Made by a program: the position numbers and the translations under genes. Source: an uncultured Chloroflexia bacterium (GTDB taxonomy: Bacteria > Chloroflexota > Limnocylindria > Limnocylindrales > CSP1-4). Taken from it: a stretch of 64,000 nucleotides of DNA. The DNA lies in contig CAWJBJ010000004.1 in the NCBI GenBank assembly GCA_963841135.1, positions 543,496-607,495 on the forward strand. Reading direction: 5' to 3'. The notes under the pieces are model-generated. The model searched no databases and was not told the DNA's origin. It was given only the letters and a program-made list of their open reading frames with translations. Shown in pieces: positions 17,625 through 49,241 of the stretch; position 1 is the first letter of the stretch; every line of letters starts with the position of its first letter.

Positions 17625-20558
17625 TCAGTCGATCAGGTGGCTCGGCGGGTCCACCGGCGTCGGGGCCTGCAGCGAGAACTCGGCGGCGAGGGCGAGGCCT
17701 TCCGCGGCGGTGGCGATCTTGTCGCGGCCGCCGCGCTTGGCGACGAAGCAGGCGCGGTCGGCGGCCAGCAGCACCGAGGCGGCGGTGTCCCCGTCGTCCG
17801 GGAACGTGGCGATCCCGATCGAGGCCGTCACGCTGCGACCCGTGGCCCGGACCGCCTGGCCCGCCCGCTCCGCGACCAGGCGCGCGCCGGCGGCATCGGT
17901 GCCGGGCAGCAGGAAGGAGAACTCGTCGCCGCCGTAGCGGAAGATCTGGTCGGAGTCGCGCCCGGCGCGCACGAGCTCGGTGGCGATCTCGCGCAGGAGC
18001 TGGTCGCCGGCCTGGTGTCCCAGCGAGTTGTTGACGTCGCGGAAGTCGTCTAGGTCGAGCATGATCAGGCTGAACGGGCTGCCCGCATGGACGCTGAGCT
18101 CCAGCCGGTTCTCGAACGTCCCGTGGTTGAGCAGGCCGGTCAGGTCGTCGGTCTGCGCGCGGAGCTCCACGGCCTCGAAGACCTCGGCGTTCTGCAGCGC
18201 GATGGAGACCTGGGCCGCGAACAGCTGGACCAGCTCGAACTCGTCGTCCGAGAACGCGTTGCCGAGGCCGAGGCGCTCGATCGTCAGGACCCCGATCGCG
18301 CCCTCGCGGCCCCGGAGCGGGACGACGATCAGGCTGCCGTCCTGGACGCTGACATCCTGGTCGCGGAAGTGGTTGACGCGCGGGTCGTTGCGCGAGTCGG
18401 GGATGTAGGTCGGCTCGTTGTGGTCGACGACCCAGGTCGCGATCCCTGTCTCGCCGGGCTCCCACGGTTCGAGGTAGCTGTCGGCGTGGACGCCACGGGC
18501 CGTCAGGGGCGTCAGCAGGCGGGTGTGCGGGTCGACGACCTCGATGGCGATGTTGTCGCACTCGATCAGGCGGAGCAGCCGCTCGGTGATGCTGTCGAGG
18601 ACGGCGCGGCCGTCGAGCGTGGTCAGGATCGATTCGGTGATCTGGAGGAGCTCGCGCTGGCTCTGGACCTGCCGCTCGAGCGCGGCACTCTGCTCGCGCA
18701 GCCGCGCGGTCGTGTCGGCGGTGGCCATCGCCTGGGCGGCAAAGCTCCCGTAGATGACCAGGAGGCGCAGGTCGTCGTCCGTGAACTGGTCGAGCCCGAG
18801 CTTGGAGAGGACGAGGACGCCGAGGACGCGGTCGTCGAAGATCATCGGGGCCAGGAGCATGGACTCGTCGAGGTCCTCCTCCGTGCCCGGGATCGTGTCC
18901 GCGCGCGGGTCCTTCGCTGCGTCGCCGAGGTTCTGGGCGACCCCGTGCTCGGCGACCCAGCCGGTGATGCCCTCGCCGACCGAGACGCGCAGCATGTCCA
19001 TGGTCTCATCGACGTATTCGCCGACCTGGCCCTTCATCGCGACGGGGATGAGGTCGTTCCCCATGAGCCGGTACACGCGGACGTTGTGGTAGTCGATGAT
19101 CTGGCGCAGCTCGGTGGCGATGGCCATCCCGATGTCGTGGACGCTCGAGAGCCGGTTCAGCCGCGTGCCGAGCTGCTGGATCGATCCGAGCTGGGCCGCC
19201 CACGTGGCCATGCGCTCGAAGTCCTGCGCGGCCCGGATCGCGACGCTGGCCTGGGTCGCGAGCGCGGCCATCGTCTCGAGGTCGTCCTCGGACCAGGCGT
19301 GCGCGCGGTCGTGATAGACGTTCAACAGCCCGAGCAGCTCCGCCCCGTCGAAGAGCGGCGCCGTGCAGATGGTGTCGAACCCTTCCTGGATGGCGGCCGC
19401 GCGGACATCCAGCCCACGCGGATCGTTGGCGTAGTCGACGGCGAACATCGGACGCCGCTCCGCCACCGCGAGCGTCGGCAGCGAGCGCCTCGGGAAGTCC
19501 CGCACGCTCCCCAGGTAGCTCGCTGACAGGTTCCGGCTCACCTCCGCGACGGCCGTCCCACCCGGTCGTTGCAGGAAGACCGCGGCGCGATCTGCCTCGA
19601 ACAGCACCATCGCGTGATCGACCAGGCCGGACAGGATCCGATCGAGATCGAGCCGGCTCCCGATGTCACCCGCGACGCGGTGGAGCGCTTCTGCGCGATG
19701 GAGCTGGTGGGCGACCTCGTCGCGTCGGCGCGCCACCGAGACGAGCGTGCCGATGGCGTTGGCGACGACGGAGGCCACCTCGCCGTCTCGCTCGCTGATG
19801 GTGCCGGTGGCCTCGCCGACGACGTGCAGGACGCCCCACGCCCCGCCGAGCGACGGGATGACCGCGGCCAGCTCGGGGCGCTCGCCCGACAGGATCGCGA
19901 GCGGTGCGCCCAGCTCATCGATGCCGGTCGAGGCGCGTCCGTGACCTAGTTCGGACGGGTCGTCCGGGAGGGCTGCGGCAGCGAGGGCCGCGCCCAGCAC
20001 GCCGAAGCCGCGAGGGCGTTCACCGAGCCGCGCGACCTGGCCTGTCGGATCATGCGCGACCGCGCGGGGGACGAGCCGATCGTCGCGCAATTCCCAGATC
20101 GCGACGAGGTGGTGGTCGTAGGCGTCGCGAAGCAGCCGGACGGCGCTGGCGAGGTCGTCGTCGAGCTCGTCGGGCTCCGCGGTCAGTCGGGTGATCGCGT
20201 CGATGAGCGACAGGTCGATGGCATACCGCTCGCCCCGGTGCGGCTCGGCCGACTGACGGCCACCGTCCGCGCGGCGATCCAGGGACGACGGGAGCGCGTG
20301 GAGCATCCGCCGCCCGCCGAGACCCGCGGCCGTGGGCGGACCGGCCGGCTCGGCAGGGCCGAACTCGGCCGCCGCGAGGAAGCGCTGGAGATCGCCCATG
20401 CGGTACCGCCGATCGCCGCGCGGATTGATCCGGTAATAGCGCAGCCGGCCGGCATCGCTCCACGCGCGAACGGTGTTCGGGTGCACGCCGAGCAGGCGGG
20501 CCGCCTTCGTGACGGTCAGCGTGGCATCGATCGGGCGGGACGGAAGGGTCGTACTCAC
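17625..20558 (-). CDS. HTH (MerR/excisionase-type)-GAF-GAF-GAF-GGDEF diguanylate cyclase
   Basis: 977 aa, uninterrupted. N-terminal LTVTKAARLLGVHPNTVRAWSDAGRL, repeated GAF-like segments, and C-terminal RYGGDEF with RDSD (RxxD I-site) 5 residues upstream. Confidence 0.9.
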   Translation of the reverse strand: MSTTLPSRPIDATLTVTKAARLLGVHPNTVRAWSDAGRLRYYRINPRGDRRYRMGDLQRFLAAAEFGPAEPAGPPTAAGLGGRRMLHALPSSLDRRADGGRQSAEPHRGERYAIDLSLIDAITRLTAEPDELDDDLASAVRLLRDAYDHHLVAIWELRDDRLVPRAVAHDPTGQVARLGERPRGFGVLGAALAAAALPDDPSELGHGRASTGIDELGAPLAILSGERPELAAVIPSLGGAWGVLHVVGEATGTISERDGEVASVVANAIGTLVSVARRRDEVAHQLHRAEALHRVAGDIGSRLDLDRILSGLVDHAMVLFEADRAAVFLQRPGGTAVAEVSRNLSASYLGSVRDFPRRSLPTLAVAERRPMFAVDYANDPRGLDVRAAAIQEGFDTICTAPLFDGAELLGLLNVYHDRAHAWSEDDLETMAALATQASVAIRAAQDFERMATWAAQLGSIQQLGTRLNRLSSVHDIGMAIATELRQIIDYHNVRVYRLMGNDLIPVAMKGQVGEYVDETMDMLRVSVGEGITGWVAEHGVAQNLGDAAKDPRADTIPGTEEDLDESMLLAPMIFDDRVLGVLVLSKLGLDQFTDDDLRLLVIYGSFAAQAMATADTTARLREQSAALERQVQSQRELLQITESILTTLDGRAVLDSITERLLRLIECDNIAIEVVDPHTRLLTPLTARGVHADSYLEPWEPGETGIATWVVDHNEPTYIPDSRNDPRVNHFRDQDVSVQDGSLIVVPLRGREGAIGVLTIERLGLGNAFSDDEFELVQLFAAQVSIALQNAEVFEAVELRAQTDDLTGLLNHGTFENRLELSVHAGSPFSLIMLDLDDFRDVNNSLGHQAGDQLLREIATELVRAGRDSDQIFRYGGDEFSFLLPGTDAAGARLVAERAGQAVRATGRSVTASIGIATFPDDGDTAASVLLAADRACFVAKRGGRDKIATAAEGLALAAEFSLQAPTPVDPPSHLID

Positions 20559-25102: not shown

Positions 25103-26881
25103 TCAGGCGCCCTCGAGCAGCAGCGGCCGGAGGGTTCCCCAGTCGTTCCACAGCTCGGCCAGGCCATCGGCCCGACGGCCGAGGAGCGCGATCAGGTCGG
25201 AGAGGCTGAGGTCCCCGGCCGTCCCGGCGAGGTGCTCGTCGGCGGCGACGGTCAGCTCGCTGTAGAGCGCGGCCATCTCCGGCTCGGTCGGCCATTGACG
25301 GATCCGCATCGGATCGAGTCCGGCGTAGCCCATCGCCATCGAGAGCTCGCGTTGCGTGGGGACGCGTTCGTCGACGAAGCCGCCGAGCCCGTCGAACCGA
25401 TGGCCCAGCGACGCAAGCGCCTGTGCGATCTCCCGATCCTGGACCAGGGTGAAGAGGCCCCAGAACGGATGGTTGGCTGGGAACTCGAGCGAGCCAGACT
25501 CGATGCTGACGGAGACGATCGCGTCGACCAGCTGCGTGAGGTTCGCCTGCCAGCGCCGGGCCGCGGCGGGGTCGTCGCGGGACAGTCGCGCCACGAGCGC
25601 GGTCAACGTTTCTCGATCACCACGCAGGAGGCGGAAGATCGTCGGCGTGCCACCCGCGGACAGCGCCGCGGCCAGGGGCTCGTCCTCGTCGATCGAACCG
25701 GTCGGGCGTTCGGTCCAGGGCGCCTGCTGCGCCGGTTCGGCGATGTCCGCGGCGGCGCCCTCGTCGCATTCCGCGAGGGCCTGGCGGGCGACGAGGCACG
25801 CGGCCTCAGCGGCCTCCGCGGCGATCCTCGCGGCGTCGGCCTCGCGAGTCAGGTGGTCGAGCCCGGCCCCGATGGCCGTGGCCGCGGCCCGTTCTCGTTT
25901 CGCGGTGATCGCCGCGTTTCGCGCCGTGTTGTTGACCTCGTTGATGTCGACGAGCCAGTCCCGGGCCGCGGCTTCGGCCTCCTCGGTCGACTTCGACCCG
26001 TTGTAGGCGCTCCGGAACCGGGCCTGGGCGGCCTCCTTTTCGCGGCGGACCGCGCGTTGGTCCGCGACCGCTGCCGCGGCGTCGGCCGCGGTCATGTGGT
26101 TGTCGTAGGTCCGCTGGGCCGCCCGCAGCGCATCGGCTGACTCGGTCGCGCGGCGGCGTGCCCCGACCGCGAACCCGCAGCGCTCGGCCGCGACCCGTCG
26201 CTCGGCAGCACACCGGTCGGTCGCGTCCGGCGCCGTCCCGACGGCTCCGCCCGAGCCCGATCCGCCCGACCCGCCGCCACCCGACCCGCCGCCACCGGAG
26301 GCGCCACCACCGCGGCCCCCGGCCCCGCTGGCGCCGCCGACGAAGAGGCCGGCGTCGTTCCTCGGACCGCGATCCGGATCCCCCGAGGCCACCACCGAGG
26401 CCACGGTCGTCGGGACCAGGATCCGCCCGTTCGCGCGCAGTGCAAGAAGCATCGGATCGTCGCCGCCGTCGATGGAGATGCCGACCATCGTGCCCGGGCC
26501 GGCGTCGCCGCGCGGATCGGTCAGGCGGAACGCAGGCTCCATCGTCCGCCCGAGCCGCGGCCAGCTCGCGTCGCCCGCGTCACCGTCATCGAGAGGGCGG
26601 CGGGACCGAACGGCCGTTCGATGATCCAAGCTTCCGCCGGCCGTCGGCGGCTCGTCCGCGGCGTGATCGCCGGGACCGACGCGGGCCGAGTCTGGGCCGG
26701 TCGCGACGAACGCATCGTCCGACAAGGTCACCGAGCGGCGCGGGATGGCGTCCTGGGCAACGACGACTCGGACCTCTCTGCGAGCGGGCGGGCGGGCCCG
26801 CAGGACCACGATCAGGGCGGCGCCGGCCGCGACGCCAAGGGCCAGGCCAAGGGCCAGGAAGGCGAACTCTGTGGCACTCAC
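25103..26881 (-). CDS. membrane-anchored hypothetical protein with a Gly/Ser tract and an Ala/Arg/Glu-rich helical region
   Basis: 592 aa, uninterrupted. N-terminal TM helix, GGASGAGGRGGGASGGGGSGGGGSGGSGSGG (26246-26338), a coiled-coil-like middle and a globular C-terminus. No recognisable motif. Confidence 0.6.
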   Translation of the reverse strand: MSATEFAFLALGLALGVAAGAALIVVLRARPPARREVRVVVAQDAIPRRSVTLSDDAFVATGPDSARVGPGDHAADEPPTAGGSLDHRTAVRSRRPLDDGDAGDASWPRLGRTMEPAFRLTDPRGDAGPGTMVGISIDGGDDPMLLALRANGRILVPTTVASVVASGDPDRGPRNDAGLFVGGASGAGGRGGGASGGGGSGGGGSGGSGSGGAVGTAPDATDRCAAERRVAAERCGFAVGARRRATESADALRAAQRTYDNHMTAADAAAAVADQRAVRREKEAAQARFRSAYNGSKSTEEAEAAARDWLVDINEVNNTARNAAITAKRERAAATAIGAGLDHLTREADAARIAAEAAEAACLVARQALAECDEGAAADIAEPAQQAPWTERPTGSIDEDEPLAAALSAGGTPTIFRLLRGDRETLTALVARLSRDDPAAARRWQANLTQLVDAIVSVSIESGSLEFPANHPFWGLFTLVQDREIAQALASLGHRFDGLGGFVDERVPTQRELSMAMGYAGLDPMRIRQWPTEPEMAALYSELTVAADEHLAGTAGDLSLSDLIALLGRRADGLAELWNDWGTLRPLLLEGA

Positions 26882-27012
26882 GCTGTCCGCATCGGTCGCA
26901 GTCGGACCCCTTCGGATCGACGGATACCCCGTCGCAGCGTAGCTGCGAGCGCTGCGAGCGTCAAATCCGCGGAACGCGGCGCCGATGGCCCTCGGCCCGC
27001 CCGCCGCGGGTT

Positions 27013-27042
27013 TTGCAGGTCCCGAGACCCGGATGGTAGATT
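27013..27042 (+). promoter_or_regulatory. candidate promoter TTGCAG-N18-(TGg)TAGATT for the Rieske/b6 operon
   Basis: The only TANNNT element with an upstream TTGCA in the 150-bp divergent region. If it is used, the first gene starts downstream of it (TTG 27126). Confidence 0.3.
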
Positions 27043-28961
27043 CGGTCCACCGGCAGCCGGCCGGTTCAGCCTGCTCCCGACACTCCCATCAAGCCGTACC
27101 CAGACCAGGGAAAGGCACGACCCGCTTGGTCATCGAGCCGCCCCAGGAATTCCTCGTCCAGCCCGTCGACGCCTCCTGGCTCCAATGCAACATCGAGTGC
27201 CAGGAAGCGTGCCCGGTCGGGACGAACTGCCGTGGCTACCTCAACCTGGCCGCCGAGGGCCGGTTCGAGGAGGGCTACATCCTGTCGCGCGAGCCGAACC
27301 CGGTCGCGGCGATGTGCTCCTACGTCTGCTCCGCGCCCTGCGAGCGCGCCTGCCGGCGCGGCGACATCGATCGGCCGCTGGCGATCCGTGCGATGAAGCG
27401 GTTCCTGGTCGAGTGGCACGAGGCCTCGGGCATCCCCGACGTCATGCCCGAGATCACGGCACGGGCCGAGCGGGTCGCCGTGGTCGGCGCCGGGCCGGCG
27501 GGTCTCTCGGTCGCGCGCGAGCTGGCCACCAAGGGCTACCAGGTCACGGTCTTCGACAGCCTGCCGTACGGCGGCGGCACGATGCTCATCGGCGTCCCGG
27601 CGTTCCGCCTGCCGCGCGAGGCGATCGAGATGGACGTGCGGCTCGTCGAGCGCCTCGGCGTGCGCTTCGTGTTCGACACGGAGATCGGCAAGGACATCAC
27701 CTTCGACCAGCTCCAGCGCGACTTCGACTCGATCGCCATCACCGCCGGCGCGATGGACGCGGTCGCGCTCGACATCCCCGGCGCCGACCTCGACGGCGTC
27801 GACTACGGCGTCGACTTCATGAAGAAGGCCAACCTCGGGCAGCCCCTCGAGGTCGGCACCGACGTGGTCGTCATCGGCGGCGGCTACACGGCGATGGACT
27901 GCTCGCGGACGAGCCTGCGCCACGGCGCGGAACGCGTCTCGATCGTCTACCGGCGGACCCGCTCCGAGCTCGTGGTCGACGAGGAGGAGCTCGGCGAGAC
28001 CGAGCGCGAGGGCGTCCGCATGGAGTTCCTCGCGAGCCCCATCGAGATCCTCGGCGAGGACGGCAAGGTCAGTGGCGTCCGGTTCATCCGGAACCGCCTC
28101 GGCGAGCCGGACGCCTCCGGCCGGCGGTCGCCCGTGCCGATCGAGGGGTCCGAATTCGTGATCCCCGCGAAGACCGTCATCCCGGCCGTCTCGCAGGCCG
28201 CGGACCTCACGTTCCTGCCGGTCGAGGCGACGTTCGAGATCAACCGCGGCCGGGTCAAGGTCGACCCGGCCACGTACGCCTCCAACGTCAAGGGCGTCTT
28301 CGCCTGCGGCGACTTCGTCACCGGCCCCACGACGCTCATCGAGGCGGCCGGCCACGGGAAGAAGTGCGCGTATGCGATCGACCGGTACCTGTCGGGCCGG
28401 ACCGACGTCACGGTCGATGCGAACGTCAAGATCACCAGCTCGTGGCGCCACGACATGCCGGACTTCTACGACGTCCTGCCCCGCCAGCACATCCCGATGG
28501 TGCCGCTGACCGCGCGCATGCCGTCCACCGACCCGGTCGTCAACTTCAACACGCCGGTCGAGCTCGGCTACGACGCGACCGGCGCGGTGGCCGAGTCGAC
28601 GCGCTGCCTCATGTGCAACTACAACATCTGGTTCGACCCCTTCCGCTGCGTCTTGTGCGGGGCGTGTGCCGATGTCTGCCCGGAGGGCGTCATCCACATG
28701 ATCGACGTCAACCAGATGAAGTCCGAGGGCCTGCTGCCCGAGCTCGAGGAGGCCTACGGCTGGGACCAGGGCGCCGCCATGGTGCTCGATGAGGAGCGCT
28801 GCATCCGCTGCGCGCTCTGCGTCAAGCGGTGCCCGTTCGACGCCATTACGATGGAGCGGTTCGAGCTGCAGGAGGTTTCGACCGACGGCCGGCTCTACAA
28901 GGAGTCGTACCGCGACGCGCAACTCGCCGGGACGCCCGGCGTGGCAGGAGGAGCCCGGTGA
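27033..28961 (+). CDS. GltD-like NAD(P)H-dependent FAD oxidoreductase fused to a 2x[4Fe-4S] ferredoxin domain
   Basis: N-terminal Fe-S region (CNIECQEACP..CSAPCERAC); VAVVGAGPAG and VVVIGGGYTAMD dinucleotide folds; FACGD; C-terminal CVLCGACADVCP and CIRCALCVKRCP. Start uncertain (26985, 27033 or TTG 27126). Confidence 0.85.
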   Translation: MVDSVHRQPAGSACSRHSHQAVPRPGKGTTRLVIEPPQEFLVQPVDASWLQCNIECQEACPVGTNCRGYLNLAAEGRFEEGYILSREPNPVAAMCSYVCSAPCERACRRGDIDRPLAIRAMKRFLVEWHEASGIPDVMPEITARAERVAVVGAGPAGLSVARELATKGYQVTVFDSLPYGGGTMLIGVPAFRLPREAIEMDVRLVERLGVRFVFDTEIGKDITFDQLQRDFDSIAITAGAMDAVALDIPGADLDGVDYGVDFMKKANLGQPLEVGTDVVVIGGGYTAMDCSRTSLRHGAERVSIVYRRTRSELVVDEEELGETEREGVRMEFLASPIEILGEDGKVSGVRFIRNRLGEPDASGRRSPVPIEGSEFVIPAKTVIPAVSQAADLTFLPVEATFEINRGRVKVDPATYASNVKGVFACGDFVTGPTTLIEAAGHGKKCAYAIDRYLSGRTDVTVDANVKITSSWRHDMPDFYDVLPRQHIPMVPLTARMPSTDPVVNFNTPVELGYDATGAVAESTRCLMCNYNIWFDPFRCVLCGACADVCPEGVIHMIDVNQMKSEGLLPELEEAYGWDQGAAMVLDEERCIRCALCVKRCPFDAITMERFELQEVSTDGRLYKESYRDAQLAGTPGVAGGAR

Positions 28962-29686
28962 GTTTCCTCGAGCGGGTGGACAACGCCATCCGCCGAAGCC
29001 CCGTCTGGCGATCGCTCTTCCGCCAGCCGTACCCGAACGACGAACGCTCGCGGGCGTACGCCGTGATGAACAATGTCTTCCTGCACATCCACCCGGTCCG
29101 CGTGCGCCAGCACGCGGTGAAGTTCGCGTACACGTTCTGCCTGGGCGGGCTGAGCTTCTTCCTGTTCCTCGTCCTGACCGTGACCGGCGTCTACCTGATG
29201 TTCTTCTACGTGCCCTCGGCGACCCTCGCCTACACGAACATCCTCGAGATCCAGGCCGAGGTCACGTTCGGGCTCCTGACGCGGAACATCCACCGCTGGG
29301 CCGCGCACCTCATGGTCTTCTTCGTCTTCCTGCACATGATGCGGGTCTTCTACCACGGGGCCTACAAGCCGCCGCGCGAGTTCAACTGGGTCGTCGGGGT
29401 CGTGCTCCTGTTCCTGACGATCATGCTGAGCTTCACGGGCTACCTGCTGCCGTGGGACCAGATCGCGTTCTGGGCGATCACGATCGGCACGAACATGGGC
29501 GGCTACGCGCCGGTGCTGAACTTCCCGGTCTCGCGGATCCTGCTCGGCGGCCTCGAGGTCGGCCAGAACACGCTCCTGCGGTTCTACGTCGGCCACGTCG
29601 TGTTCCTGCCGCTCATCGCCGCCGTCTTCCTGGCCGTCCACTTCTGGCGCATCCGCAAGGACGGCGGGATCTCGGGGCCGCTATGA
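28958..29686 (+). CDS. cytochrome b6-type (split) cytochrome b, N-terminal four-helix subunit
   Basis: The GTG overlaps the upstream TGA. Heme-ligand His pairs in HRWAAHLMVFFVFLHMM and GHVVFLPLIAAVFLAVH. The C-terminus IRKDGGISGPL is typical of b6. Confidence 0.9.
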   Translation: MSFLERVDNAIRRSPVWRSLFRQPYPNDERSRAYAVMNNVFLHIHPVRVRQHAVKFAYTFCLGGLSFFLFLVLTVTGVYLMFFYVPSATLAYTNILEIQAEVTFGLLTRNIHRWAAHLMVFFVFLHMMRVFYHGAYKPPREFNWVVGVVLLFLTIMLSFTGYLLPWDQIAFWAITIGTNMGGYAPVLNFPVSRILLGGLEVGQNTLLRFYVGHVVFLPLIAAVFLAVHFWRIRKDGGISGPL

Positions 29687-29804
29687 CGACCCATCGCGGC
29701 GTTGTCGGCTGCGCCCGCTCACTCACGCACCTTGGGGTGCGCTCGATCGCGTGCTCACCTCCGCCTTGCGCTGAGCCGTCCTATCGGCCCCTCGGGTACA
29801 TGCG

Positions 29805-30407
29805 ATGAGTGACGTCAAGCAGCCGCCCGAGCGGCGGGAGGTGCTGCCGGTCGACCCGACGCGGCGTACCGAGATCGACAAGCAGCGCGTGCCGATGTCG
29901 GCGCGGCCCTACCGGCTGCTCGCGCTCGTCAAGCAGGATGCCGTCGTCCGCGTCCAGAAGGAACCGGACGACACGGTCATGACCTGGCCGCACCTGTTGA
30001 CGATCGAGTTCCTGGCCGGCGGCGTCATGAGCATCTTCCTGCTGATGATGGGCCTGTTCATCAACGCGCCACTCGAGGAGCTGGCCAACGGCAACGTCAC
30101 GCCGGCGGTGGCCAAGGCACCGTGGTACTTCCTCGGCCTCCAGGAGTTGCTGGCCTATTTCCACCCGACGGTGGCCGGCGTCCTCGTGCCGACGTTCGTC
30201 CTGGTCGGCGCGGCGCTGATCCCGTACATCGATCGGGGCAACATCCTCTCGATCCGGCCGTCGGAGCGCAAGACCGCGGTGATGCTCTTCACGATCTTCT
30301 GCTGCCTCGGTCTCATCCTGACCTTCGTCGGCATCTTCTTCCGCGGACCCGGCTACACGTTCGTCGTCCCGTTCGTGACGGCGCCCGGCGTCTACTTCTC
30401 CCTGTGA
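29805..30407 (+). CDS. cytochrome b C-terminal subunit (subunit IV/PetD-like)
   Basis: Three TM helices with the Qo-site motif in APWYFLGLQELL. Confidence 0.85.
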   Translation: MSDVKQPPERREVLPVDPTRRTEIDKQRVPMSARPYRLLALVKQDAVVRVQKEPDDTVMTWPHLLTIEFLAGGVMSIFLLMMGLFINAPLEELANGNVTPAVAKAPWYFLGLQELLAYFHPTVAGVLVPTFVLVGAALIPYIDRGNILSIRPSERKTAVMLFTIFCCLGLILTFVGIFFRGPGYTFVVPFVTAPGVYFSL

Positions 30408-30426
30408 CCAGAGGAACCCGCGCGCG

Positions 30427-31101
30427 ATGAGCAACTACCAGGTCGAACCGATCGACAAGCCCGCCGCCCTCACGAAGGAGGCGATCAAGGCGCTTCGCCG
30501 CGAGCAGGTCCAGGGCCTGTCCCGCCGGCAGCTGATCCGCAACGCCCTCGGCGCCGGCATCGGGTTGTGGCTCCTCGAGGTGACCGCGGGGACGATCGGC
30601 TTCGCGTGGCCGAACCTGACCGGCGGCTTCGGTGCGCCGATCGAGATGGGCGACCTCGAGACGATCAAGCTCCAGAACTCGTCGCTGCCGATCGACGAGG
30701 GCTTCCCCGCCTACTACCCGGAGGCGCGGGCGTTCGTCATCCTCGTGGACCCCGGGCAGCAGCGCTTCCTGGCCGGCGAGGACGAGAGCGGCGACGGGAC
30801 GGCGCTGAACGTGCGGGCGCTGTACCAGCGCTGTCCGCACCTCGGTTGCAAGCCCAACCCCTGCCTCAAGAACTTCTGGTTCGAGTGTCCCTGCCACGGG
30901 TCGCGCTACGACCGGCTGGGCATCAAGGCCGATGGCGCCCAGTACGGACCCGCGCCGCGCGGCATGGACCGCTTCTCCATCACGGTGGACGGCGCGGGCA
31001 AGCTGACCATCAACACCGGCAAGATCACGCTCGGCCCCCTTCCGATCGCGCTCGGCCAGCCGGGCCTGATCCCGCCCCGCACCCCCACCGGCTGCATCTG
31101 A
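30427..31101 (+). CDS. Rieske [2Fe-2S] subunit
   Basis: Tat-like SRRQLIRNALGAGIG followed by a TM helix, and cluster boxes CPHLGC and CPCHGS. Confidence 0.9.
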   Translation: MSNYQVEPIDKPAALTKEAIKALRREQVQGLSRRQLIRNALGAGIGLWLLEVTAGTIGFAWPNLTGGFGAPIEMGDLETIKLQNSSLPIDEGFPAYYPEARAFVILVDPGQQRFLAGEDESGDGTALNVRALYQRCPHLGCKPNPCLKNFWFECPCHGSRYDRLGIKADGAQYGPAPRGMDRFSITVDGAGKLTINTGKITLGPLPIALGQPGLIPPRTPTGCI

Positions 31102-31132
31102 CCGTGACCCGACCCGACCCCCGAGGAGATCG

Positions 31133-32245
31133 ATGACCGACACGCCCGAAGGCGAGCCCGAGCAGCGTCTGCCCGCGACCCGTCCGTCGGCCGAGCCGGC
31201 CCCGGTCGAGCGGTTCAGCGCCCCGCCCGCCGCCCGAAGCCTGGAGCTGACGCCGGAGCGCGCCGCCCAGATCGTCCGCTCGTCGTCGAACGCGCGCTGG
31301 ATCGGCTTCCTCACGATCATCGTCGTGGTCCTGTTCATCTCGATCTACTGGTTCTACGAGCTCGGCGCGCCGCTCGGCATCACCGACGCCCGGCTCAACC
31401 AGGAGACCGACGCGCAGCAGGTCGTGGCCGTCGAGCGTGGCTACAACGTCTACGAGGCCAACTGCGCGCGCTGTCATGGCGAGAACGGGGAAGGCGGGGT
31501 CGGCCCGATCCTCAACCGCCAGGACAAGCTCTTCGCGCACCTCAACGAGAACTACCTGCGGACCGTGCTGACCGCCGGCGGTCGCTACGTCTGCGGCGAC
31601 CCGCTCTCGCTCATGCCCGTCTGGTCGAACGAGGCGAACCCGCCGGGCCCGCTCAACTATCGACAGATCGACGAGCTGATCGCGTTCCTGCGCGCGACGA
31701 ACGAGAAGTCGTACGTCGTCCGCGACCACGAGCTCGGGACGCCGCTGATCGATCCGTTGACCGGGAAGGTCAAGACGTTCAAGGGCTGGCGCGATCCGAA
31801 TTACAAGCCGGAGGCGGCAGCGACCCCGTACCCGGACTGCTGGAAGAAGGAGTTCGAGACGCCGTCCGCCGCGCCGTCGGGATCGGCCGGAGCCTCCGCC
31901 GCGCCCTCGGCCGCCCCGTCGGGCTCGGCTGCGCCCTCGGGCTCGGCCGCGCCCTCGGGCTCGGGCGGCTCGACGGTCAGCATCGCGGCCGCGGCCATCG
32001 CCTTCGCGCCAACGACCCTGACGGCGAGCGCCGGGGCGCCCTTCACCCTGGAGTTCGACAACCAGGACGCGGCCATCCCGCACAACGTGGCGATCAAGGA
32101 CGGCTCGGGCGCCCAGGTGTTCATCACCGACACCTTCCCGGGTCCCGAGAAGCGCACCTTCGAGGTGCCCGCCCTGACCGCGGGGAGCTACCCCTTCGTG
32201 TGCACCGTGCACCCCAACATGACCGGCACACTCACGGTCCAGTAG
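31133..32245 (+). CDS. membrane-anchored monoheme cytochrome c fused to a type-1 copper (cupredoxin) domain
   Basis: TM helix, CARCH heme site with distal LMPVW, an Ala/Pro/Ser/Gly repeat linker, and cupredoxin ligands IPHNV and CTVHPNM. Confidence 0.85.
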   Translation: MTDTPEGEPEQRLPATRPSAEPAPVERFSAPPAARSLELTPERAAQIVRSSSNARWIGFLTIIVVVLFISIYWFYELGAPLGITDARLNQETDAQQVVAVERGYNVYEANCARCHGENGEGGVGPILNRQDKLFAHLNENYLRTVLTAGGRYVCGDPLSLMPVWSNEANPPGPLNYRQIDELIAFLRATNEKSYVVRDHELGTPLIDPLTGKVKTFKGWRDPNYKPEAAATPYPDCWKKEFETPSAAPSGSAGASAAPSAAPSGSAAPSGSAAPSGSGGSTVSIAAAAIAFAPTTLTASAGAPFTLEFDNQDAAIPHNVAIKDGSGAQVFITDTFPGPEKRTFEVPALTAGSYPFVCTVHPNMTGTLTVQ

Positions 32246-32257
32246 GTCGAGGAGACG

Positions 32258-33709
32258 ATGGCCCAACGGGCGCTCACAGCCGGGATGACGGTGCCGCGGA
32301 AGCGGGCCCTGTTCGGCCTGCTCGACGCGGACGGATGGGCATGGGCGTCGGTCAAGGCCCTGATCTGGACGATCATCATCGTGATCCTGCTGGGCTATAT
32401 CCCGGACCGGGCGTACTACCTGACCGTCGCCCGGACGGTGGACCTCGGGGTCCTCGCCTGGTCGCCGGTCAACCTCTGCCCGCCGACGAACAAGACGTTG
32501 CCCTGTCCGGTCCCGGTCGGGGCCGTGGTCCCGTGGGATCCCTCGCCGGCCGAGCTGGCCCTGCCGCAGGCCCGGAGCGACGGAGCGGTCGTCCAGGTCG
32601 GGACGCGGCTGCTCTACATCGGCGGCACCGACGGCACGAAGGCGCAGTCCACGGTCTTCGTCGCGAATACCGTCGGGACCGGGAACTTCGACAAGTGGGC
32701 CGAGGGTCCGCCGCTGCCGGAGCCGCGCACCGAGGCGGGCGTCGCGTTCGTTGCCGGCAGCGTCTACGTGATGGGCGGACTCGATGCCGACGGCGCCCCG
32801 ACCACGACGACGTACGTCCTCGCGCCCGACGGCACGACCGGTGAGCTCGGCGAGTGGAAGGAGGCTCCCGAGGCCCTCGTCCTGCCCGAGGCCCGGTCGG
32901 GCGCCGGCGCTGTCGCGACGGCCGACGGCATGCTGCTGATCGGCGGCTCCAACGCCGATGGGCCGGTCAACACGACGTGGAAGTCGACGTTCGACCAGAG
33001 CGGGGTTCTCGGCAAGTGGGCCGCCGAGCAGCCCCTGGCGTCGGCGCAGACGGGCGTGACGGCCGGGGTCGTCGGCGATTTCGTCTGGGTCTTCGGCGGC
33101 CGGGACGCGAGCGGCCCGGTGGCGACGGTCCAGCGCGGCGATTTCGGACAACCCGCCGCCGCAGGGCTTCCCGCGAACCCCGACGAGGGCAAGGTCGTCG
33201 CCTGGGCCACCAACCCGAGCGCCAACCTGCCCGGACCTCGCGCCGATGCCGCCGCATGGGCCGTCAACGGCGCGCTCTACGTCGTGGGCGGCGACGACGG
33301 GACCGGCGCCCGCACGGAGCTGTACTGGGCGCTGCCGTCGAACGGCGGTGACATCGCCGAGTGGAAGCACCTCGATGTCAGCGACCTCCCGACCCCGATG
33401 ACCGGAGGCGCGCCCGTGGTCAGCGGACCGAACGCGATCATCGTCGGCGGCACGACGGCCGATGGCGTGGTCGGCACGAGCGAGCGCGCGAACATCGCCC
33501 CCCAGGCCCCGTTCTTCCAGCTGGGCCTCGTCGGCGCGGTCGTGCCGGGCCTGACGATCGGCGGCGAGATCGGCCAGCAGCTCGGCTACCTGAACGCGGC
33601 CGGTGCCGGCACGGTCGGGTTCGTCCTCCTGATCATCCTCGGCTGGGCGTGGGCCCACAAGGAGCAGTCGCGCGCCCTCGTCGGGCGGGTCTTGCGCCGC
33701 CGCCGCTGA
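32258..33709 (+). CDS. Kelch-repeat beta-propeller protein with N- and C-terminal TM helices
   Basis: Repeated ..YV.GG.D..G... blades (LLYIGGTDG, VYVMGGLDADG, MLLIGGSNADG, VWVFGGRDASG, LYVVGGDDG, AIIVGGTTADG). Starts 12 nt after the cytochrome c gene. Confidence 0.75.
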   Translation: MAQRALTAGMTVPRKRALFGLLDADGWAWASVKALIWTIIIVILLGYIPDRAYYLTVARTVDLGVLAWSPVNLCPPTNKTLPCPVPVGAVVPWDPSPAELALPQARSDGAVVQVGTRLLYIGGTDGTKAQSTVFVANTVGTGNFDKWAEGPPLPEPRTEAGVAFVAGSVYVMGGLDADGAPTTTTYVLAPDGTTGELGEWKEAPEALVLPEARSGAGAVATADGMLLIGGSNADGPVNTTWKSTFDQSGVLGKWAAEQPLASAQTGVTAGVVGDFVWVFGGRDASGPVATVQRGDFGQPAAAGLPANPDEGKVVAWATNPSANLPGPRADAAAWAVNGALYVVGGDDGTGARTELYWALPSNGGDIAEWKHLDVSDLPTPMTGGAPVVSGPNAIIVGGTTADGVVGTSERANIAPQAPFFQLGLVGAVVPGLTIGGEIGQQLGYLNAAGAGTVGFVLLIILGWAWAHKEQSRALVGRVLRRRR

Positions 33710-33713
33710 GCCC

Positions 33714-34082
33714 CTAGCCCGGGAGCTCGCCCTCGCCCGGGTCCGGCGTCCCGGATCGCGTCGGCAGGCCGGCGTTCGCCCAGGCCTCCATGCCGCCGGC
33801 CACGTTCACGACATCCGTCCGGCCGCTCCGTGCCAGGAAGCCGGTGACCGCCGCCGACCGGCCGCCCGTGTGACAGATGACGAGGATCGGCCGATCGGTC
33901 GGCACGTCGTCGACCCGCGCCTGGAACGTCGACATCGGGATCAGGAGCGCGCCGGGCGCTCGAACGGTCTCGAACTCGCTCACCTCGCGGACGTCCAGCA
34001 GGACCGGGCGATCCGGGTCGTCGCGAAGCCGTCGATCGGCCTCGGTCACGTCGATCGAGGGCACCGCGCCCGGCAGCGTCAT
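33714..34082 (-). CDS. single-domain rhodanese sulfurtransferase
   Basis: LLDVRE..E and the active-site loop ICHTGGRS. 122 aa. Confidence 0.85.
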   Translation of the reverse strand: MTLPGAVPSIDVTEADRRLRDDPDRPVLLDVREVSEFETVRAPGALLIPMSTFQARVDDVPTDRPILVICHTGGRSAAVTGFLARSGRTDVVNVAGGMEAWANAGLPTRSGTPDPGEGELPG

Positions 34083-38844: not shown

Positions 38845-38917
38845 GGGCCGGTAGCTCAGTGGTCAGAGCAGGGGACTTTTAATCCCTGGGTCGTGGGTTC
38901 GAATCCCACCCGGCTCG
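38845..38917 (+). tRNA. tRNA-Lys (anticodon UUU), CCA not encoded
   Basis: Acceptor GGGCCGG/CCGGCTC, D arm GCTC-AGTGGTC-AGAGC, anticodon stem GGGGA/TCCCT with loop CTTTTAA, T arm GTGGG-TTCGAAT-CCCAC. Confidence 0.9.
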
Positions 38918-43268: not shown

Positions 43269-44489
43269 ATGAACAGTGGCGACACCGCGTGGATGCTGGC
43301 ATCCACGGCGTTGGTCATGATCATGTTGCCCGGCCTGGCCCTCTTCTACGGCGGCCTCGTGCGGCGCAAGAACGTCCTCTCGACGATCATGCACAGCTTC
43401 TTCGGGCTCGCCCTCGTCAGCGTCGTCTGGGTCGCCATCGGGTTCAGCCTCGCGTTCGGCTCCGACGTCGGCGGCCTGGGCCTCATCGGCGGCCTCGACT
43501 TCGTGGGCTTCGCGAACGTCGGCCTCGAGCCGAGCACGATCTACGGCGTCACGATCCCCTTCGTCCTCTTCGCCGGCTTCCAGCTGATGTTCGCGGCGAT
43601 CACCCCGGCGCTCATCACGGGCGCCTTCGCCGAGCGCAAGCGCTTCGGGGCCTTCGTGCTCTTCACGATCCTCTGGTCGATCCTTGTCTACTCGCCGATC
43701 GCCCACTGGGTCTGGTCGGTCGACGGCTGGCTCTTCACCCGAGGCGCGCTCGACTTCGCCGGCGGCACCGTCGTCCACATCAGCTCCGGCGTCTCGGCGC
43801 TGATCGTCGCGATCCTCATCGGCCGGCGAGCCGTCAACGGCGAGAGCATGGAGCCGCATGACGTCCCGATGACCGTTCTCGGCGCGGGTCTCCTGTGGTT
43901 CGGCTGGTTCGGCTTCAACGCCGGCTCCGCCCTGAGCGCCGGTGGCCTCGCGGCGAGCGCCTTCGTCGTGACGAACACGGCCGCGGCCGCAGCGACGATC
44001 ACCTGGGTCCTCGCGAGCTATCTCCACAAGGGCAAGGTCAGCGTGCTCGGCGCCGCCTGCGGTGCGGTGGCCGGACTGGTCGCCATCACCCCTGCGTCGG
44101 GCTTCGTGACCCCCGGCGGCGCACTGGTCGTCGGCTTCGCGGCCGGCGGCCTGTGCTACAGCGCCACGCTCCTTCGGGCCCGGATCAAGGTCGATGACGC
44201 GCTCGATGTCTTCGCGGTCCACGGCGTCGGCGGCGCGTTCGGCGCGGTCGCGACCGGCGTCCTCGCCACGAGCGCGGTCCAATCGACCTACAAGGGCCTC
44301 ATCGACGGCAACCCCGGCCAGCTCCTCACGCAGCTCCTCGCGGTCGGCGCGACCGTCGGCTACGCGGTCGTGGCCACCTTCGTGATCGTCAAGATCGTCG
44401 ACCTCGTCCTCGGGATCCGCGTCCCGTCGACGCAGGAAGAGGCCGGCCTCGACATGGCCGTGCACGGGGAGGCGGCCTATCAGCCGTAG
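43269..44489 (+). CDS. amt: ammonium transporter
   Basis: 406 aa, 11 TM helices. Contains DFAGGTVVHISSG and GVHGVGG Amt signatures. Confidence 0.95.
   Translation: MNSGDTAWMLASTALVMIMLPGLALFYGGLVRRKNVLSTIMHSFFGLALVSVVWVAIGFSLAFGSDVGGLGLIGGLDFVGFANVGLEPSTIYGVTIPFVLFAGFQLMFAAITPALITGAFAERKRFGAFVLFTILWSILVYSPIAHWVWSVDGWLFTRGALDFAGGTVVHISSGVSALIVAILIGRRAVNGESMEPHDVPMTVLGAGLLWFGWFGFNAGSALSAGGLAASAFVVTNTAAAAATITWVLASYLHKGKVSVLGAACGAVAGLVAITPASGFVTPGGALVVGFAAGGLCYSATLLRARIKVDDALDVFAVHGVGGAFGAVATGVLATSAVQSTYKGLIDGNPGQLLTQLLAVGATVGYAVVATFVIVKIVDLVLGIRVPSTQEEAGLDMAVHGEAAYQP

Positions 44490-44625: not shown

Positions 44626-49237
<4,612 letters not shown>

Positions 49238-49241
<4 letters not shown>

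Follow-up and report, generated by a model that had tools for sequence, protein, structure and literature searches.

An NfnB/GltD-like flavoprotein gene heads a Rieske/cytochrome b cluster in uncultured Limnocylindria (Chloroflexota)

Background

Rieske/cytochrome b complexes of the anammox bacterium Kuenenia stuttgartiensis were reportedly described by Kartal et al. in 2013 and by de Almeida et al. in 2016. The complexes Kuste4569-4574 and Kustd1480-1485 are also the subject of Hauser et al. 2025 (PMC12954380), according to whom the subunits of the complex migrate together, titration gives potentials of +303 and +335 mV for the two Rieske proteins, and AlphaFold3 models lay out a path from haem through Fe-S clusters to FAD. 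A complex with an NADP(H)-binding Fe-S flavoprotein apparently attached is, it seems, so far known from anammox bacteria only.

An APWY clade of cytochrome b was delineated by Kao and Hunte 2014 (PMC4122944), and a subfamily G, neighboured by NAD(P)-binding Fe-S oxidoreductases, by Dibrova et al. 2013, 2017 (PMC5600118). These works pair the APWY clade with mid- to high-potential Rieske proteins and already record from genomes that a large Fe-S protein with an NAD(P) site co-occurs with this cytochrome b group. They contain neither a function nor the Limnocylindria gene set, nor do they cover two points described below, the variant with ferredoxin alone and the inverse relation of flavoprotein linkage to the haem cn cysteine. 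The locus reported here shares with that group the APWY Qo motif, the high-potential Rieske signature and a patchy spread across phyla.

Results

The window, a stretch of 64,000 nucleotides from an uncultured Limnocylindria bacterium, carries six genes, g1-g6, all on the plus strand and together spanning 27126-33709 (Table 1). Recomputing the open reading frames returned the gaps of -4, 118, 19, 31 and 12 nt that a first-pass annotation had given, and its coordinates for the six genes likewise stood, except for the start of g1. That start had been placed at ATG 26985, to which the open frame does reach (658 aa); given that the relatives are 610-611 aa long and begin MAIEP.QEFLVQ, TTG 27126 is most likely the start, giving 611 aa. 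GC at third codon positions is 0.89-0.94 in each of g1-g6 (the genome is 72% GC), and we therefore take all six to be real genes. The upstream neighbour (25103-26881) is divergent and the downstream one (33714-34082) convergent, both on the minus strand; hence g1-g6 constitute a single co-directional block. A consensus scan of the operon region found no promoter-like site of the sigma-70 type, and terminator-like sites occur at chance rate only.

The g1 stop and the GTG start of g2 overlap by 4 nt in GTGA (28958-28961), exactly where this had been reported, behind a GGAGGA Shine-Dalgarno sequence (28947-28952). The overlap of flavoprotein and cytochrome b genes is identical in L001, L002 and L082. 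This arrangement bears out the proposed signature of translational coupling.

Table 1. Features of the g1-g6 locus, in window coordinates.
Feature	Position	Strand	Basis
Intergenic region 5' of g1, presumed promoter region	26882-27125	.	Between minus-strand gene 25103-26881 and TTG 27126
g1, 611 aa, NfnB/GltD-like NADP(H) flavoprotein, soluble, ending in a 2x[4Fe-4S] ferredoxin domain	27126-28961	+	Pfam, solved relatives, AF2
g1 N-terminal cysteine clusters CNIECQEACPVGTNC ... MCSYVCSAPCERAC, Fer4_20 region, two Fe-S clusters beside FAD	27186-27353	+	Pfam, motif search
g1 two dinucleotide folds, whole region	27474-27968	+	Motif search
g1 FAD fold VAVVGAGPAG	27474-27503	+	Motif search
g1 NADP(H)-type fold VVVIGGGYTAMD	27864-27899	+	Motif search
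g1 IVYRRTRSE after the VVVIGGGYTAMD fold, NADP(H)-type	27942-27968	+	Motif search
g1 C-terminal ferredoxin motifs CVLCGACADVCP and CIRCALCVKRCP	28647-28835	+	Pfam, motif search
GGAGGA ribosome-binding site, then GTGA stop/start overlap of g1/g2	28947-28961	+	Sequence; overlap recurs in relatives
g2, four-helix cytochrome b6, 242 aa	28958-29686	+	Pfam Cytochrome_B, E 1e-45
g2 FLHIHP, within the N-terminal extension	29078-29095	+	
g2 haem cn cysteine, in FCLGG	29135-29149	+	
g3, subunit IV with three transmembrane helices, 200 aa	29805-30407	+	Pfam Cytochrom_B_C
g3 Qo motif APWY, in KAPWYF	30114-30131	+	
g4, Rieske [2Fe-2S] protein, 224 aa	30427-31101	+	Pfam Rieske
g4 twin-arginine motif SRRQLI	30520-30537	+	
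g4 cluster boxes CPHLGC and CPCHGSRY	30832-30909	+	
g5, membrane-anchored monohaem cytochrome c with amicyanin-like type 1 copper domain	31133-32245	+	Pfam Cytochrom_C, Cupredoxin_1
g5 haem motif CARCH	31463-31477	+	
g5 Ala/Pro/Ser-rich linker joining cytochrome c to copper domain	31871-31972	+	
g5 copper motifs: His in IPHNV, then C-x2-H-x2-M	32075-32221	+	
g6, Kelch-repeat beta-propeller with N- and C-terminal transmembrane helices, putative accessory	32258-33709	+	Pfam Kelch families

HMM searches (Pfam/NCBIfam) recovered the family claimed for each product, and all motifs quoted in support were found (VAVVGAGPAG, VVVIGGGYTAMD, CVLCGACADVCP, CIRCALCVKRCP, IRKDGGISGPL, PWYFLGLQELL, CPHLGC and CPCHGS). 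Pfam resolves g1 into Fer4_20, Pyr_redox_2 and two Fer4 domains, and no transmembrane segment is predicted in it. Its best solved relatives are NfnABC (9n5u, 9bov), Stn (8oh5), NfnB (4ylf) and GltD; the AF2 model (pLDDT 86, pTM 0.86) has the same top matches by fold, so that sequence and fold together lead to 9n5u, 9bov, 8oh5, 4ylf, 5jca and 2vdc. As in these proteins, the FAD and NADP(H) folds and the N-terminal cluster cysteines are conserved, with C25, C29, C68, C72 and C76 invariant across 22 homologs. Since the NfnB-like domains of 9n5u, 9bov and 4ylf, which bind NADP(H), align with the dinucleotide folds, YRR(T/S) included, we infer a preference for NADP. Unlike NfnB/GltD systems, however, the Limnocylindria cluster is without an NfnA or GltB partner, the partner genes encode membrane cytochromes, and g1 ends in an added two-cluster ferredoxin domain, which we propose to serve g1 as dock and electron wire to cytochrome b.

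The g2 protein is 48% identical to spinach b6, and its four b-haem histidines are conserved. Together with the haem cn cysteine, the Qo motif of g3 and the Rieske protein, all elements of a Q cycle are intact. Box II of g4 contains both residues that go with a high potential, Ser and Tyr, and the best solved relatives of g4 are 9rk4 (Kuste4569, E 1.3e-11) and 9rk3 (Kustd1480, E 2.3e-10). The high-potential Rieske signature and the APWY motif count as energetic support for a bifurcating quinol oxidation. On the p side, g5 has a single predicted N-terminal transmembrane helix and a weak NCBIfam match to amicyanin, and helices are predicted at residues 30-48 and 447-465 of g6. The g6 gene is conserved 3' of g5 in L001, L002, L082 and L156 (49-77% identity); tblastn finds no homolog of it in the distant Limnocylindria loci L004 and L005, nor in other phyla.

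A link to Kuenenia-type clusters with an NAD(P) oxidoreductase, suggested in the first-pass annotation, holds by the Rieske relatives above and by the identities to an anammox-type cluster (L083): 39% over 580 aa, end to end, for the flavoprotein, 51% for cytochrome b and 44% for subunit IV, in which the stretch AKAPWYFLGLQE is identical. From sequence, the four core subunits match the Kuste4569-4574-type complex. Both have a cytochrome b of the split b6 type that contains the haem cn cysteine, a subunit IV with APWY, a Rieske protein in which the Ser/Tyr box is present, and, encoded immediately 5' of cytochrome b, a FAD/NAD(P) flavoprotein that is NfnB-like and has four Fe-S sites. The structural relatives NfnABC 9bov/9bp5 and FwdF 5t5i of g1 are those that Hauser et al. 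give for Kuste4570. In contrast to the anaerobic anammox planctomycete, the host here is an uncultured soil/freshwater Chloroflexota. Its cluster differs from the Kuenenia type in having a tethered monohaem cytochrome c::blue-copper exit and a Kelch membrane protein, where Kuenenia has hexa-/octahaem cytochromes and an HAO-like enzyme, and a subunit IV of three helices instead of five. The Rieske gene follows subunit IV, whereas in Kuenenia it precedes the flavoprotein, and the two flavoproteins take separate positions in the tree.

Conservation of the gltD-like gene beside bc genes in relatives had been suggested as a check, and the adjacency is indeed conserved. Limnocylindria relatives keep the cluster with the flavoprotein gene directly 5' of cytochrome b; all six genes recur in L001, L002 and L082, and partial forms in L003-L005, L003 being a Candidatus Limnocylindrus MAG contig. 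A flavoprotein of the same architecture adjoins Rieske/cytochrome b genes in Eisenbacteria, Acidobacteriota, Planctomycetaceae (Planctomycetota) and the anammox-type contig, and in other phyla the module keeps very different p-side partners (NosZ, a molybdoenzyme, multihaem cytochromes). Among 36 metagenome loci that are assessable because 3 kb or more of sequence is available upstream, the flavoprotein gene is next to cytochrome b in 25. In 7 further loci, a stand-alone 2x[4Fe-4S] ferredoxin (137 aa), homologous to the C-terminal domain of g1 (31% identity, E 1e-13), lies alone directly 5' of cytochrome b. That such homologs occupy the same position points to the ferredoxin domain of g1 as the likely partner of cytochrome b. 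Thousands of near-identical proteins for the cluster are present in soil and freshwater metagenomes.

The haem cn cysteine is kept in 4/25 loci with the flavoprotein upstream and in 11/11 without it, an inverse relation between linkage and cysteine; the Limnocylindria cytochrome b retains the residue that most other flavoprotein-linked ones have lost. The N-terminal histidine of cytochrome b is present in all loci of both groups (25/25 and 11/11), and is thus not specific to flavoprotein-linked clusters. Cytochrome b-linked flavoproteins are not a single clade (0/100 bootstraps), so that a function common to them may have arisen by convergence, or the functions may differ. The same architecture also adjoins 2-oxoacid:ferredoxin oxidoreductase genes, and the flavoprotein is hence a general NADPH/low-potential module.

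Discussion

What can be read directly from the locus and its relatives is the gene content, the conservation of adjacency and the homology to anammox-type subunits. Beyond this, the g1-g6 products are predicted to form one membrane complex, to which physical attachment of the flavoprotein is probable; the reading as a whole, including the reaction given below, has slightly less than even confidence. The core would be a dimeric cytochrome b6/subunit IV/Rieske assembly of the APWY type. Its outer (p) side would carry the membrane-anchored monohaem cytochrome c with the tethered blue-copper domain, plus the Kelch propeller, and on the cytoplasmic (n) side the soluble flavoprotein would dock on cytochrome b via its C-terminal ferredoxin domain. 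Given the NfnB/GltD homology and the published Kuenenia models, the electron wire would comprise NADP(H), FAD, the two N-terminal Fe-S clusters, the two ferredoxin-domain [4Fe-4S] clusters and the n-side haems bN/cn, possibly with one more haem at the conserved histidine in the N-terminal part of cytochrome b. Quinol would be oxidised at Qo, one electron passing downhill through the high-potential Rieske cluster, cytochrome c and copper to a terminal oxidase and the other being driven via the b haems to reduce NADP+. The outcome would be NADPH from quinol without expenditure of proton-motive force, the reaction proposed for the anammox complexes.

Such a bifurcation of quinol oxidation to a copper/cytochrome branch and NADP+ is the most likely function, though not quite an even bet, and the direction of flow from quinol to NADP+ is held with similar reserve or a little more. 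NADPH is an anabolic reductant and not a respiratory fuel, which counts for NADP+ reduction; an aerobic heterotroph has no obvious need of reverse electron flow, which counts against bifurcation. The earlier proposal of a quinol:NAD(P)+ module rather than a standard quinol:cytochrome c reductase fares well on gene content, coupling and the Kuenenia link, but its non-standard nature is something we infer, and the Q-cycle elements are intact. Since the Limnocylindria cytochrome b keeps every b-haem ligand as well as the haem cn cysteine, a normal Q cycle with n-side quinone reduction could compete with NADP+ reduction, and ordinary turnover could proceed.

Electrons might also run the opposite way, from NADPH through the flavoprotein and ferredoxin domain to the n-side haems and quinone at Qn/haem cn, followed by a normal Q cycle, the unit as a whole acting as an NADPH:cytochrome c (copper) oxidoreductase. 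We consider this unlikely, although the intact Q-cycle elements and the retained haem cn cysteine suit it, GltD-type relatives oxidise NADPH physiologically, and for ferredoxin:NADP reductase bound to chloroplast b6f such a role has long been discussed in cyclic electron flow. This direction has no need for the pairing of a high-potential-type Rieske protein with APWY, and NADPH is an unusual respiratory donor; Hauser et al. (PMC12954380) regard it as possible in principle but argue that the drop from NADPH to menaquinone would go to waste. Less likely still, the core works as an ordinary oxidoreductase from (mena)quinol to cytochrome c/copper and may be the main complex III, with the flavoprotein as an auxiliary branch of little flux, for example a redox-poising safety valve or a sensor of an over-reduced b-haem chain. 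The canonical b6, subunit IV and Rieske elements agree with it, as do retention in a Candidatus Limnocylindrus MAG contig and abundance in metagenomes from soil and freshwater, a pattern usual for a core enzyme of respiration; however, the flavoprotein heads the operon and is translationally coupled, which suggests stoichiometric production, and the persistence of the module with differing p-side partners argues for a central role.

Finally, g1 might stand outside the complex, merely co-transcribed, as a soluble NADPH:ferredoxin-type oxidoreductase or as the small subunit (GltD) for the glutamate synthase large subunit of a downstream gltB (44626-49241), which has no adjoining gltD in the window. 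The same architecture serves other partners elsewhere, and a search for proteins that fuse the flavoprotein to cytochrome b or to Rieske found none. Nevertheless, this is improbable: g1 falls under every NCBIfam GltD cut-off (203.9 vs 447.7 and 267.3 vs 483), solved GltD chains (456-482 aa) match only its residues 20-430 and leave the ferredoxin domain uncovered, and gltB lies 16.7 kb off behind genes on both strands, whereas the place beside cytochrome b is kept in several phyla. Stand-alone ferredoxin homologs, moreover, take the same place 5' of cytochrome b, and the Kuenenia counterparts co-migrate with their complex (PMC12954380).

Cyanobacterial/chloroplast b6f resembles the Limnocylindria set in its b6, which shares the haem cn cysteine and a GISGPL C-terminus, in the split subunit IV and in letting electrons leave through a plastocyanin-like copper protein; an n-side NADP(H) flavoprotein is a functional analogy to the ferredoxin:NADP reductase reported in association with b6f. 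Unlike b6f, the operon has neither cytochrome f nor small Pet subunits, its Qo motif is APWY instead of PEWY, its copper domain is covalently tethered to cytochrome c, and its flavoprotein is operon-encoded and of the NfnB/GltD type with four Fe-S clusters rather than a plant-type FNR. Geobacter ExtOPQ (Cbc5-like; extHIJKLMNOPQS cluster) has other companions: the multihaem ExtKLMNS, the porin ExtI and the rhodanese ExtH have no place in the Limnocylindria operon, and the ext cluster is without a flavoprotein. The g2 protein barely meets the NCBIfam ExtP cut-off (290.7 vs 290 bits) and g3 resembles ExtQ weakly (53.9 vs a cut-off of 150); g2/g3 and ExtP/ExtQ fall within one broad group of cytochromes b.

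Gene calls and boundaries of the six-gene block

The window has a GC content of ~72%, and third-codon-position GC lies between 0.89 and 0.94 in all six plus-strand ORFs at 26985-33709. Since this matches the signature of genes here, the six ORFs are taken as real genes, and the six-gene arrangement proposed by the first-pass annotation is real. The intergenic distances recomputed from the ORF coordinates (-4, 118, 19, 31 and 12 nt) agree with those it gave, the TGA of the flavoprotein gene (28959-28961) does overlap the GTG start of the cytochrome b6 gene (28958-28960), and every peptide motif that it quoted is found in the translations. Searches with Pfam and NCBIfam recovered the expected families for all six products. 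The flavoprotein start, which had been placed at ATG 26985, needs revision: close relatives are 610-611 aa long and begin MAIEP.QEFLVQ, so TTG 27126 is the most likely start.

The block is bounded upstream by a divergent gene and downstream by a convergent rhodanese gene. A consensus scan returned no promoter-like sites, and terminator-like sites at chance rate only. The 118-nt gap between the cytochrome b6 and subunit IV genes was considered as a regulatory RNA and rejected, as its predicted fold is no better than that of shuffled sequences (z = -0.01) and its conservation is poor.

Features of the window and of related loci (handles beginning with L)
Sequence	Position	Strand	Feature	Matches or basis
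Window	34-107	-	tRNA gene	Rfam
Window	17625-20558	-	977-aa candidate regulator	MerR-type HTH, three GAF, GGDEF
Window	25103-26881	-	592-aa Gly/Ala/Arg-rich protein, N-terminal hydrophobic segment, divergent from the flavoprotein gene	
Window	27126-28961	+	Flavoprotein (most likely start)	Fer4_20, Pyr_redox_2, two Fer4 (Pfam/NCBIfam)
Window	28947-28952	+	GGAGGA site ahead of the cytochrome b6 GTG start	
Window	28958-29686	+	Cytochrome b6	Cytochrome_B, E 1e-45 (Pfam)
Window		+	Subunit IV	Cytochrom_B_C (Pfam)
Window		+	Rieske protein	Rieske (Pfam/NCBIfam)
Window		+	Cytochrome c::cupredoxin fusion	Cytochrom_C, Cupredoxin_1 (Pfam/NCBIfam)
Window	31871-31972	+	Interdomain linker of the fusion	Low-complexity Ala/Pro/Ser/Gly
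Window	to 33709	+	Kelch membrane protein	Kelch repeats (Pfam/NCBIfam)
Window	33714-34082	-	Rhodanese gene, convergent	
Window	38845-38917	+	tRNA gene	Rfam
Window	43269-44489		Ammonium transporter gene	
Window	44626-45420		gltB, first part	NF008730, profile 4-106
Window	45636-49241		gltB, second part, other frame	NF008730, profile 333-1473
L012	7525-14892		Acidobacteriota MAG: flavoprotein, Rieske, fused cytochrome b, multihaem cytochrome c, NosZ	NosZ by nos_propeller and cupredoxin
L022	9851-16944		Acidobacteriota MAG: same genes as L012	NosZ by sequence similarity alone
L051	9995-19391		Planctomycetaceae MAG: flavoprotein, Rieske, fused cytochrome b, ~900-aa multihaem cytochrome c, Tat-signal molybdopterin oxidoreductase	
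L015	9923-15527		Alphaproteobacteria MAG: flavoprotein, candidate 2-oxoacid:ferredoxin oxidoreductase alpha/beta genes	Length and motifs only
L040	9917-14708		Alphaproteobacteria MAG: same genes as L015	Length and motifs only
L163	5525-9447		Ferredoxin, cytochrome b6, subunit IV, Rieske, cytochrome c	

Linkage of the flavoprotein to cytochrome b in related loci

The nearest proteins, at 84-94% identity, belong to MAGs with the names Candidatus Limnocylindrales, Limnocylindria or Chloroflexi. The six-gene cluster, with its 4-nt overlap, is common to three of the related loci (L001, L002 and L082), and a Candidatus Limnocylindrus locus (L003) carries the first five genes up to the end of its contig. 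Two more distant Limnocylindria loci (L004 and L005, 52-54% identity) retain the flavoprotein, cytochrome b6, subunit IV, the Rieske protein and a cytochrome c; no Kelch gene is detectable in either.

The expectation that the gltD-like gene would be syntenic with bc genes in relatives was borne out by scans of genomes and metagenomes. A scan of one genome per species, with a seven-sequence flavoprotein alignment as query, returned 80 loci, and in eight of these a cytochrome b6 gene follows within ~1 kb of the end of the homolog (four Limnocylindria, one Eisenbacteria, two Acidobacteriota and one Planctomycetaceae). With L001 added, nine loci encode a protein of 600-700 aa that ends in two CxxCxxCxxxCP motifs beside cytochrome b; a flavoprotein with this ending but without the linkage occurs in L040 only. 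Outside Limnocylindria, the gene order in these genomes is flavoprotein, Rieske, cytochrome b and multihaem cytochrome c. Cytochrome b and subunit IV are fused in both Acidobacteriota loci and in the Planctomycetaceae locus, and a further gene lies downstream, encoding NosZ in the former and a molybdopterin oxidoreductase in the latter. The Acidobacteriota clusters tie the cytoplasmic (n-side) flavoprotein module to nitrous oxide reductase. In the two alphaproteobacterial loci, a flavoprotein of the same architecture precedes the candidate 2-oxoacid:ferredoxin oxidoreductase genes; if that reading is correct, the module may also serve soluble low-potential partners.

In a second scan, a cytochrome b alignment was used to query metagenomes, and 80 loci (L084-L163) were returned, 36 of them with at least 3 kb of upstream sequence. 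A flavoprotein gene lies upstream of cytochrome b in 25 of the 36 and a stand-alone 137-aa 2x[4Fe-4S] ferredoxin directly upstream in seven, while the remaining four have neither. This ferredoxin is 31% identical to the C-terminal domain of the window's flavoprotein (E 1e-13), with about equal spacing of the cluster motifs. The recurring neighbour of this cytochrome b group is thus a ferredoxin module, and this recurrence is the best genomic argument that the flavoprotein contacts cytochrome b via its ferredoxin domain. Downstream of its ferredoxin, the lineage without a flavoprotein (L163, and also L130, L145, L148, L153, L159 and L160) has cytochrome b6, subunit IV, Rieske and a cytochrome c that matches the cytochrome c domain twice; in L163, a NuoC-like gene of complex I follows after a further 1.4 kb. 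Among long flavoprotein representatives, none is fused to cytochrome b or to the Rieske protein; their extensions match a response-regulator domain, a [2Fe-2S] domain or a second flavoprotein unit, or else match no family.

Identity of the flavoprotein

By sequence and by fold (AF2 model, pLDDT 86), the relatives of the flavoprotein are NfnABC (9bov and 9n5u), StnC (8oh5), NfnB and GltD, with FwdF (5t5i) matching its ferredoxin part; the same structural relatives have been reported for Kuenenia Kuste4570. In the YRRT stretch, the protein aligns with relatives that depend on NADP(H). By analogy, the protein would bind FAD and NADP(H) and pass single electrons along four Fe-S clusters, with its ferredoxin domain presumably facing the n-side of cytochrome b6. 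Given the gene overlap, the conserved adjacency and the ferredoxin-only variants, we consider it probable that the flavoprotein is a real subunit of the membrane complex.

The opposing reading, in which a soluble enzyme or GltD is merely co-transcribed with the cytochrome genes, we regard as very improbable. A GltD role is unlikely: the protein falls well below the GltD family cut-offs (TIGR01317, 203.9 against 447.7; TIGR01318, 267.3 against 483), it has an additional ferredoxin domain, and its gene is separated from gltB by 16.7 kb holding unrelated genes. No gltD adjoins this gltB (44626-49241), which is preceded by an ammonium transporter gene. The gltB profile matches fall in two frames, suggesting that the part encoding the amidotransferase domain contains frameshifts or assembly errors.

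In a neighbour-joining tree of the NfnB-like core (100 bootstraps), the Limnocylindria flavoproteins form one clade (100/100), as do those of Planctomycetaceae, Eisenbacteria and Acidobacteriota together (100/100). A single clade of all cytochrome b-linked flavoproteins is recovered in 0/100 bootstraps, and so is a clade that joins the Limnocylindria proteins to the anammox type. This may reflect the weak resolution of the deep nodes, in which case a common origin would still be compatible with the tree, or recruitment of the module on more than one occasion.

Core subunits and outer-side proteins

Cytochrome b6 carries the haem cn cysteine (FCLGG, aligned to YCLGG of b6). The cysteine is retained in Limnocylindria, anammox-type and flavoprotein-less cytochromes b; among the metagenome loci, it is kept in 4/25 cytochromes b with a flavoprotein versus 11/11 without, which we treat as a pattern and not a statistic because the loci are related to one another. 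Where it is lost, in most flavoprotein-linked loci with the flavoprotein-Rieske-cytochrome b order (among L084-L163), the replacement is Y, G, F, A or R. A histidine of each Kuenenia cytochrome b has been proposed to hold a new b haem at the dimer interface (PMC12954380). In the window's protein, H43 (FLHIHP) aligns to WLHLHP of the anammox-type contig L083. The equivalent histidine is invariant in 80/80 related cytochrome b loci, with or without a flavoprotein or ferredoxin gene, so we rejected it as a marker of flavoprotein docking.

Subunit IV (200 aa) has three hydrophobic helices and the Qo motif APWY (KAPWYF, residues 104-109). The top two PDB matches of the Rieske protein are the Kuenenia proteins 9rk4 (Kuste4569, E 1e-11) and 9rk3 (Kustd1480, E 2e-10), the next match being at 4e-6, and its box II (CPCHGSRY) has both Ser and Tyr.

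On the outer (p-) side, the fusion protein joins a class I monohaem domain with a single CxxCH site (CARCH) to an amicyanin-like type 1 copper domain (His, then C-x2-H-x2-M), through a linker containing APSGSAGASAAPSAAPSGSAAPSGSAAPSGSGGS. Its identity among relatives is 52-79%, below the conservation of the core subunits. It matches no cytochrome f family and is the only c-type cytochrome in the cluster among ORFs of at least 80 aa. The Kelch protein is a propeller protein anchored twice in the membrane; a count by eye of its translation gives only two histidines, and by tblastn it is detected in closer relatives only.

An assignment to the ext operons of Geobacter was rejected. Cytochrome b6 scores 290.7 bits against ExtP (NCBIfam NF040969), just above the cut-off of 290, and automatic annotation may consequently label it 'selenite/tellurite reduction operon b-type cytochrome'; the genomic context does not fit, since none of the multihaem, porin and rhodanese genes of an ext cluster is in the operon and a flavoprotein is missing from the Geobacter cluster. 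Subunit IV scores 53.9 against ExtQ (NF040970; cut-off 150).

Comparison with the Kuenenia complexes

Two Rieske/cytochrome b complexes are known from Kuenenia stuttgartiensis (Kuste4569-4574 and Kustd1480-1485), each with a putative NAD(P) oxidoreductase subunit, and both have been proposed to reduce NAD(P)+ through bifurcation at the Qo site (PMC12954380). Their subunits co-migrate, their Rieske proteins titrate at +303 and +335 mV, and in AlphaFold3 models a path appears to lead from haems bN/cN via the new b haem and four Fe-S clusters to FAD (PMC12954380). Contig L083, recovered with a 9rk4 segment as bait, has the gene order of Kuste4569-4574. Its flavoprotein is 39% identical to the window's end to end over 580 aa, its cytochrome b 51% (N-terminal extension included) and its subunit IV 44%, with the AKAPWYFLGLQE stretch identical. 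The anammox precedent named by the first-pass annotation was correct.

Both types share a split b6-type cytochrome b that keeps the haem cn cysteine (CxGG), a subunit IV homolog and, next to the cytochrome b gene, a gene for an FAD/NAD(P) flavoprotein with four Fe-S sites. In both, the Rieske protein is of the Kuste4569/Kustd1480 type, and its box II has Ser (and Tyr). However, subunit IV has five helices in the Kuenenia type and three in the window (the L083 protein is 240 aa long), and the p-side of the Kuenenia type holds a multihaem cytochrome c and an HAO-like enzyme in place of one haem and one cupredoxin; L083 carries Cytochrome_C554 and Multi-haem_cyto genes. Relative to canonical b6f, the complex has APWY in place of PEWY and the fusion protein in place of cytochrome f, and the cluster lacks small Pet subunits among ORFs of at least 80 aa. 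APWY, as opposed to PEWY or PDWY, is the Qo motif of a clade whose cytochromes b are paired with mid- to high-potential Rieske proteins (Kao and Hunte 2014, PMC4122944). According to Dibrova et al., this cytochrome b subfamily co-occurs with NAD(P)-binding Fe-S proteins 'in many other cases' (PMC5600118). The available excerpt of the Nitrospina description gives its bc-like operon an octahaem cytochrome, not a flavoprotein.

Direction of electron flow

Following the Kartal/Hauser scheme, quinol would be oxidised at the APWY Qo site. One electron would then pass to the high-potential Rieske centre, to cytochrome c and, by way of its tethered copper domain, to an oxidase, and the other would pass through the b haems and the flavoprotein to NADP+. 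Net flow towards NADP+ is the most likely direction, a choice that we make tentatively and at a little under even chances, on the grounds of the Ser/Tyr Rieske box, the APWY motif and the role of NADP(H) as an anabolic carrier.

The flavoprotein could also work in reverse, with NADPH feeding electrons in at the n-side as in the proposed FNR-b6f route; the features that favour NADP+ reduction count against such an input, and we think it unlikely. The intact haem cn/Qn elements would allow ordinary Q cycling. That the complex is mainly an ordinary quinol:cytochrome c/copper reductase, with the flavoprotein as an auxiliary branch, appears improbable. A broader reading can be put forward, which as a whole we consider doubtful: that flavoprotein- or ferredoxin-capped Rieske/cytochrome b complexes are a widespread, modular, pmf-independent family, in which Qo bifurcation lifts a quinol electron to NADP+ (or ferredoxin). 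The cost may be paid by the strong oxidant that the p-side module serves: in Limnocylindria this may be O2, reached through the tethered blue-copper carrier, in Acidobacteriota N2O, reached through NosZ, and in anammox bacteria nitrite.

Novelty and significance

The question of an NAD(P)H-making Rieske/cytochrome b complex dates from the reading of anammox genomes, and we know of no such complex yet demonstrated to export the low-potential electron for NAD(P)H rather than recycle it to quinone. The association of flavoprotein and cytochrome b is not categorically new, because both the gene association and the bifurcation hypothesis have been published. New in the Limnocylindria locus are the host, the simple haem-copper exit, the Kelch partner and the three-helix subunit IV; a literature search on Limnocylindria respiration found nothing relevant. 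Apparently new in the related loci, relative to the literature compared, are the ferredoxin-only versions and those linked to NosZ or to a molybdoenzyme, as is the finding that the haem cn cysteine and linkage to a flavoprotein are inversely related.

A very abundant lineage outside the anammox bacteria has the same subunit set, with one haem and one copper on a much simpler p-side, and the related loci make the n-side ferredoxin module the recurring partner of this cytochrome b clade. For structural modelling, heterologous expression and enzymology, the Limnocylindria complex offers a simpler system. If bifurcation is real, models of carbon and nitrogen cycling in soil and freshwater would gain a new source of reducing power, and the NosZ-linked Acidobacteriota version would be included in it; if the pmf-independent reading is true, the complex would be a main NADPH route from quinol-level donors in abundant aerobic soil and freshwater Chloroflexota.

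Neighbouring genes

Apart from the two tRNA genes, Rfam matches nothing in the window. The 592-aa product of the divergent gene has no Pfam or NCBIfam match, and an unannotated gene occupies the equivalent position in L001 (372 aa) and L082 (533 aa). The candidate MerR/GAF/GGDEF regulator is kept a few kb upstream of the cluster in both of these loci.
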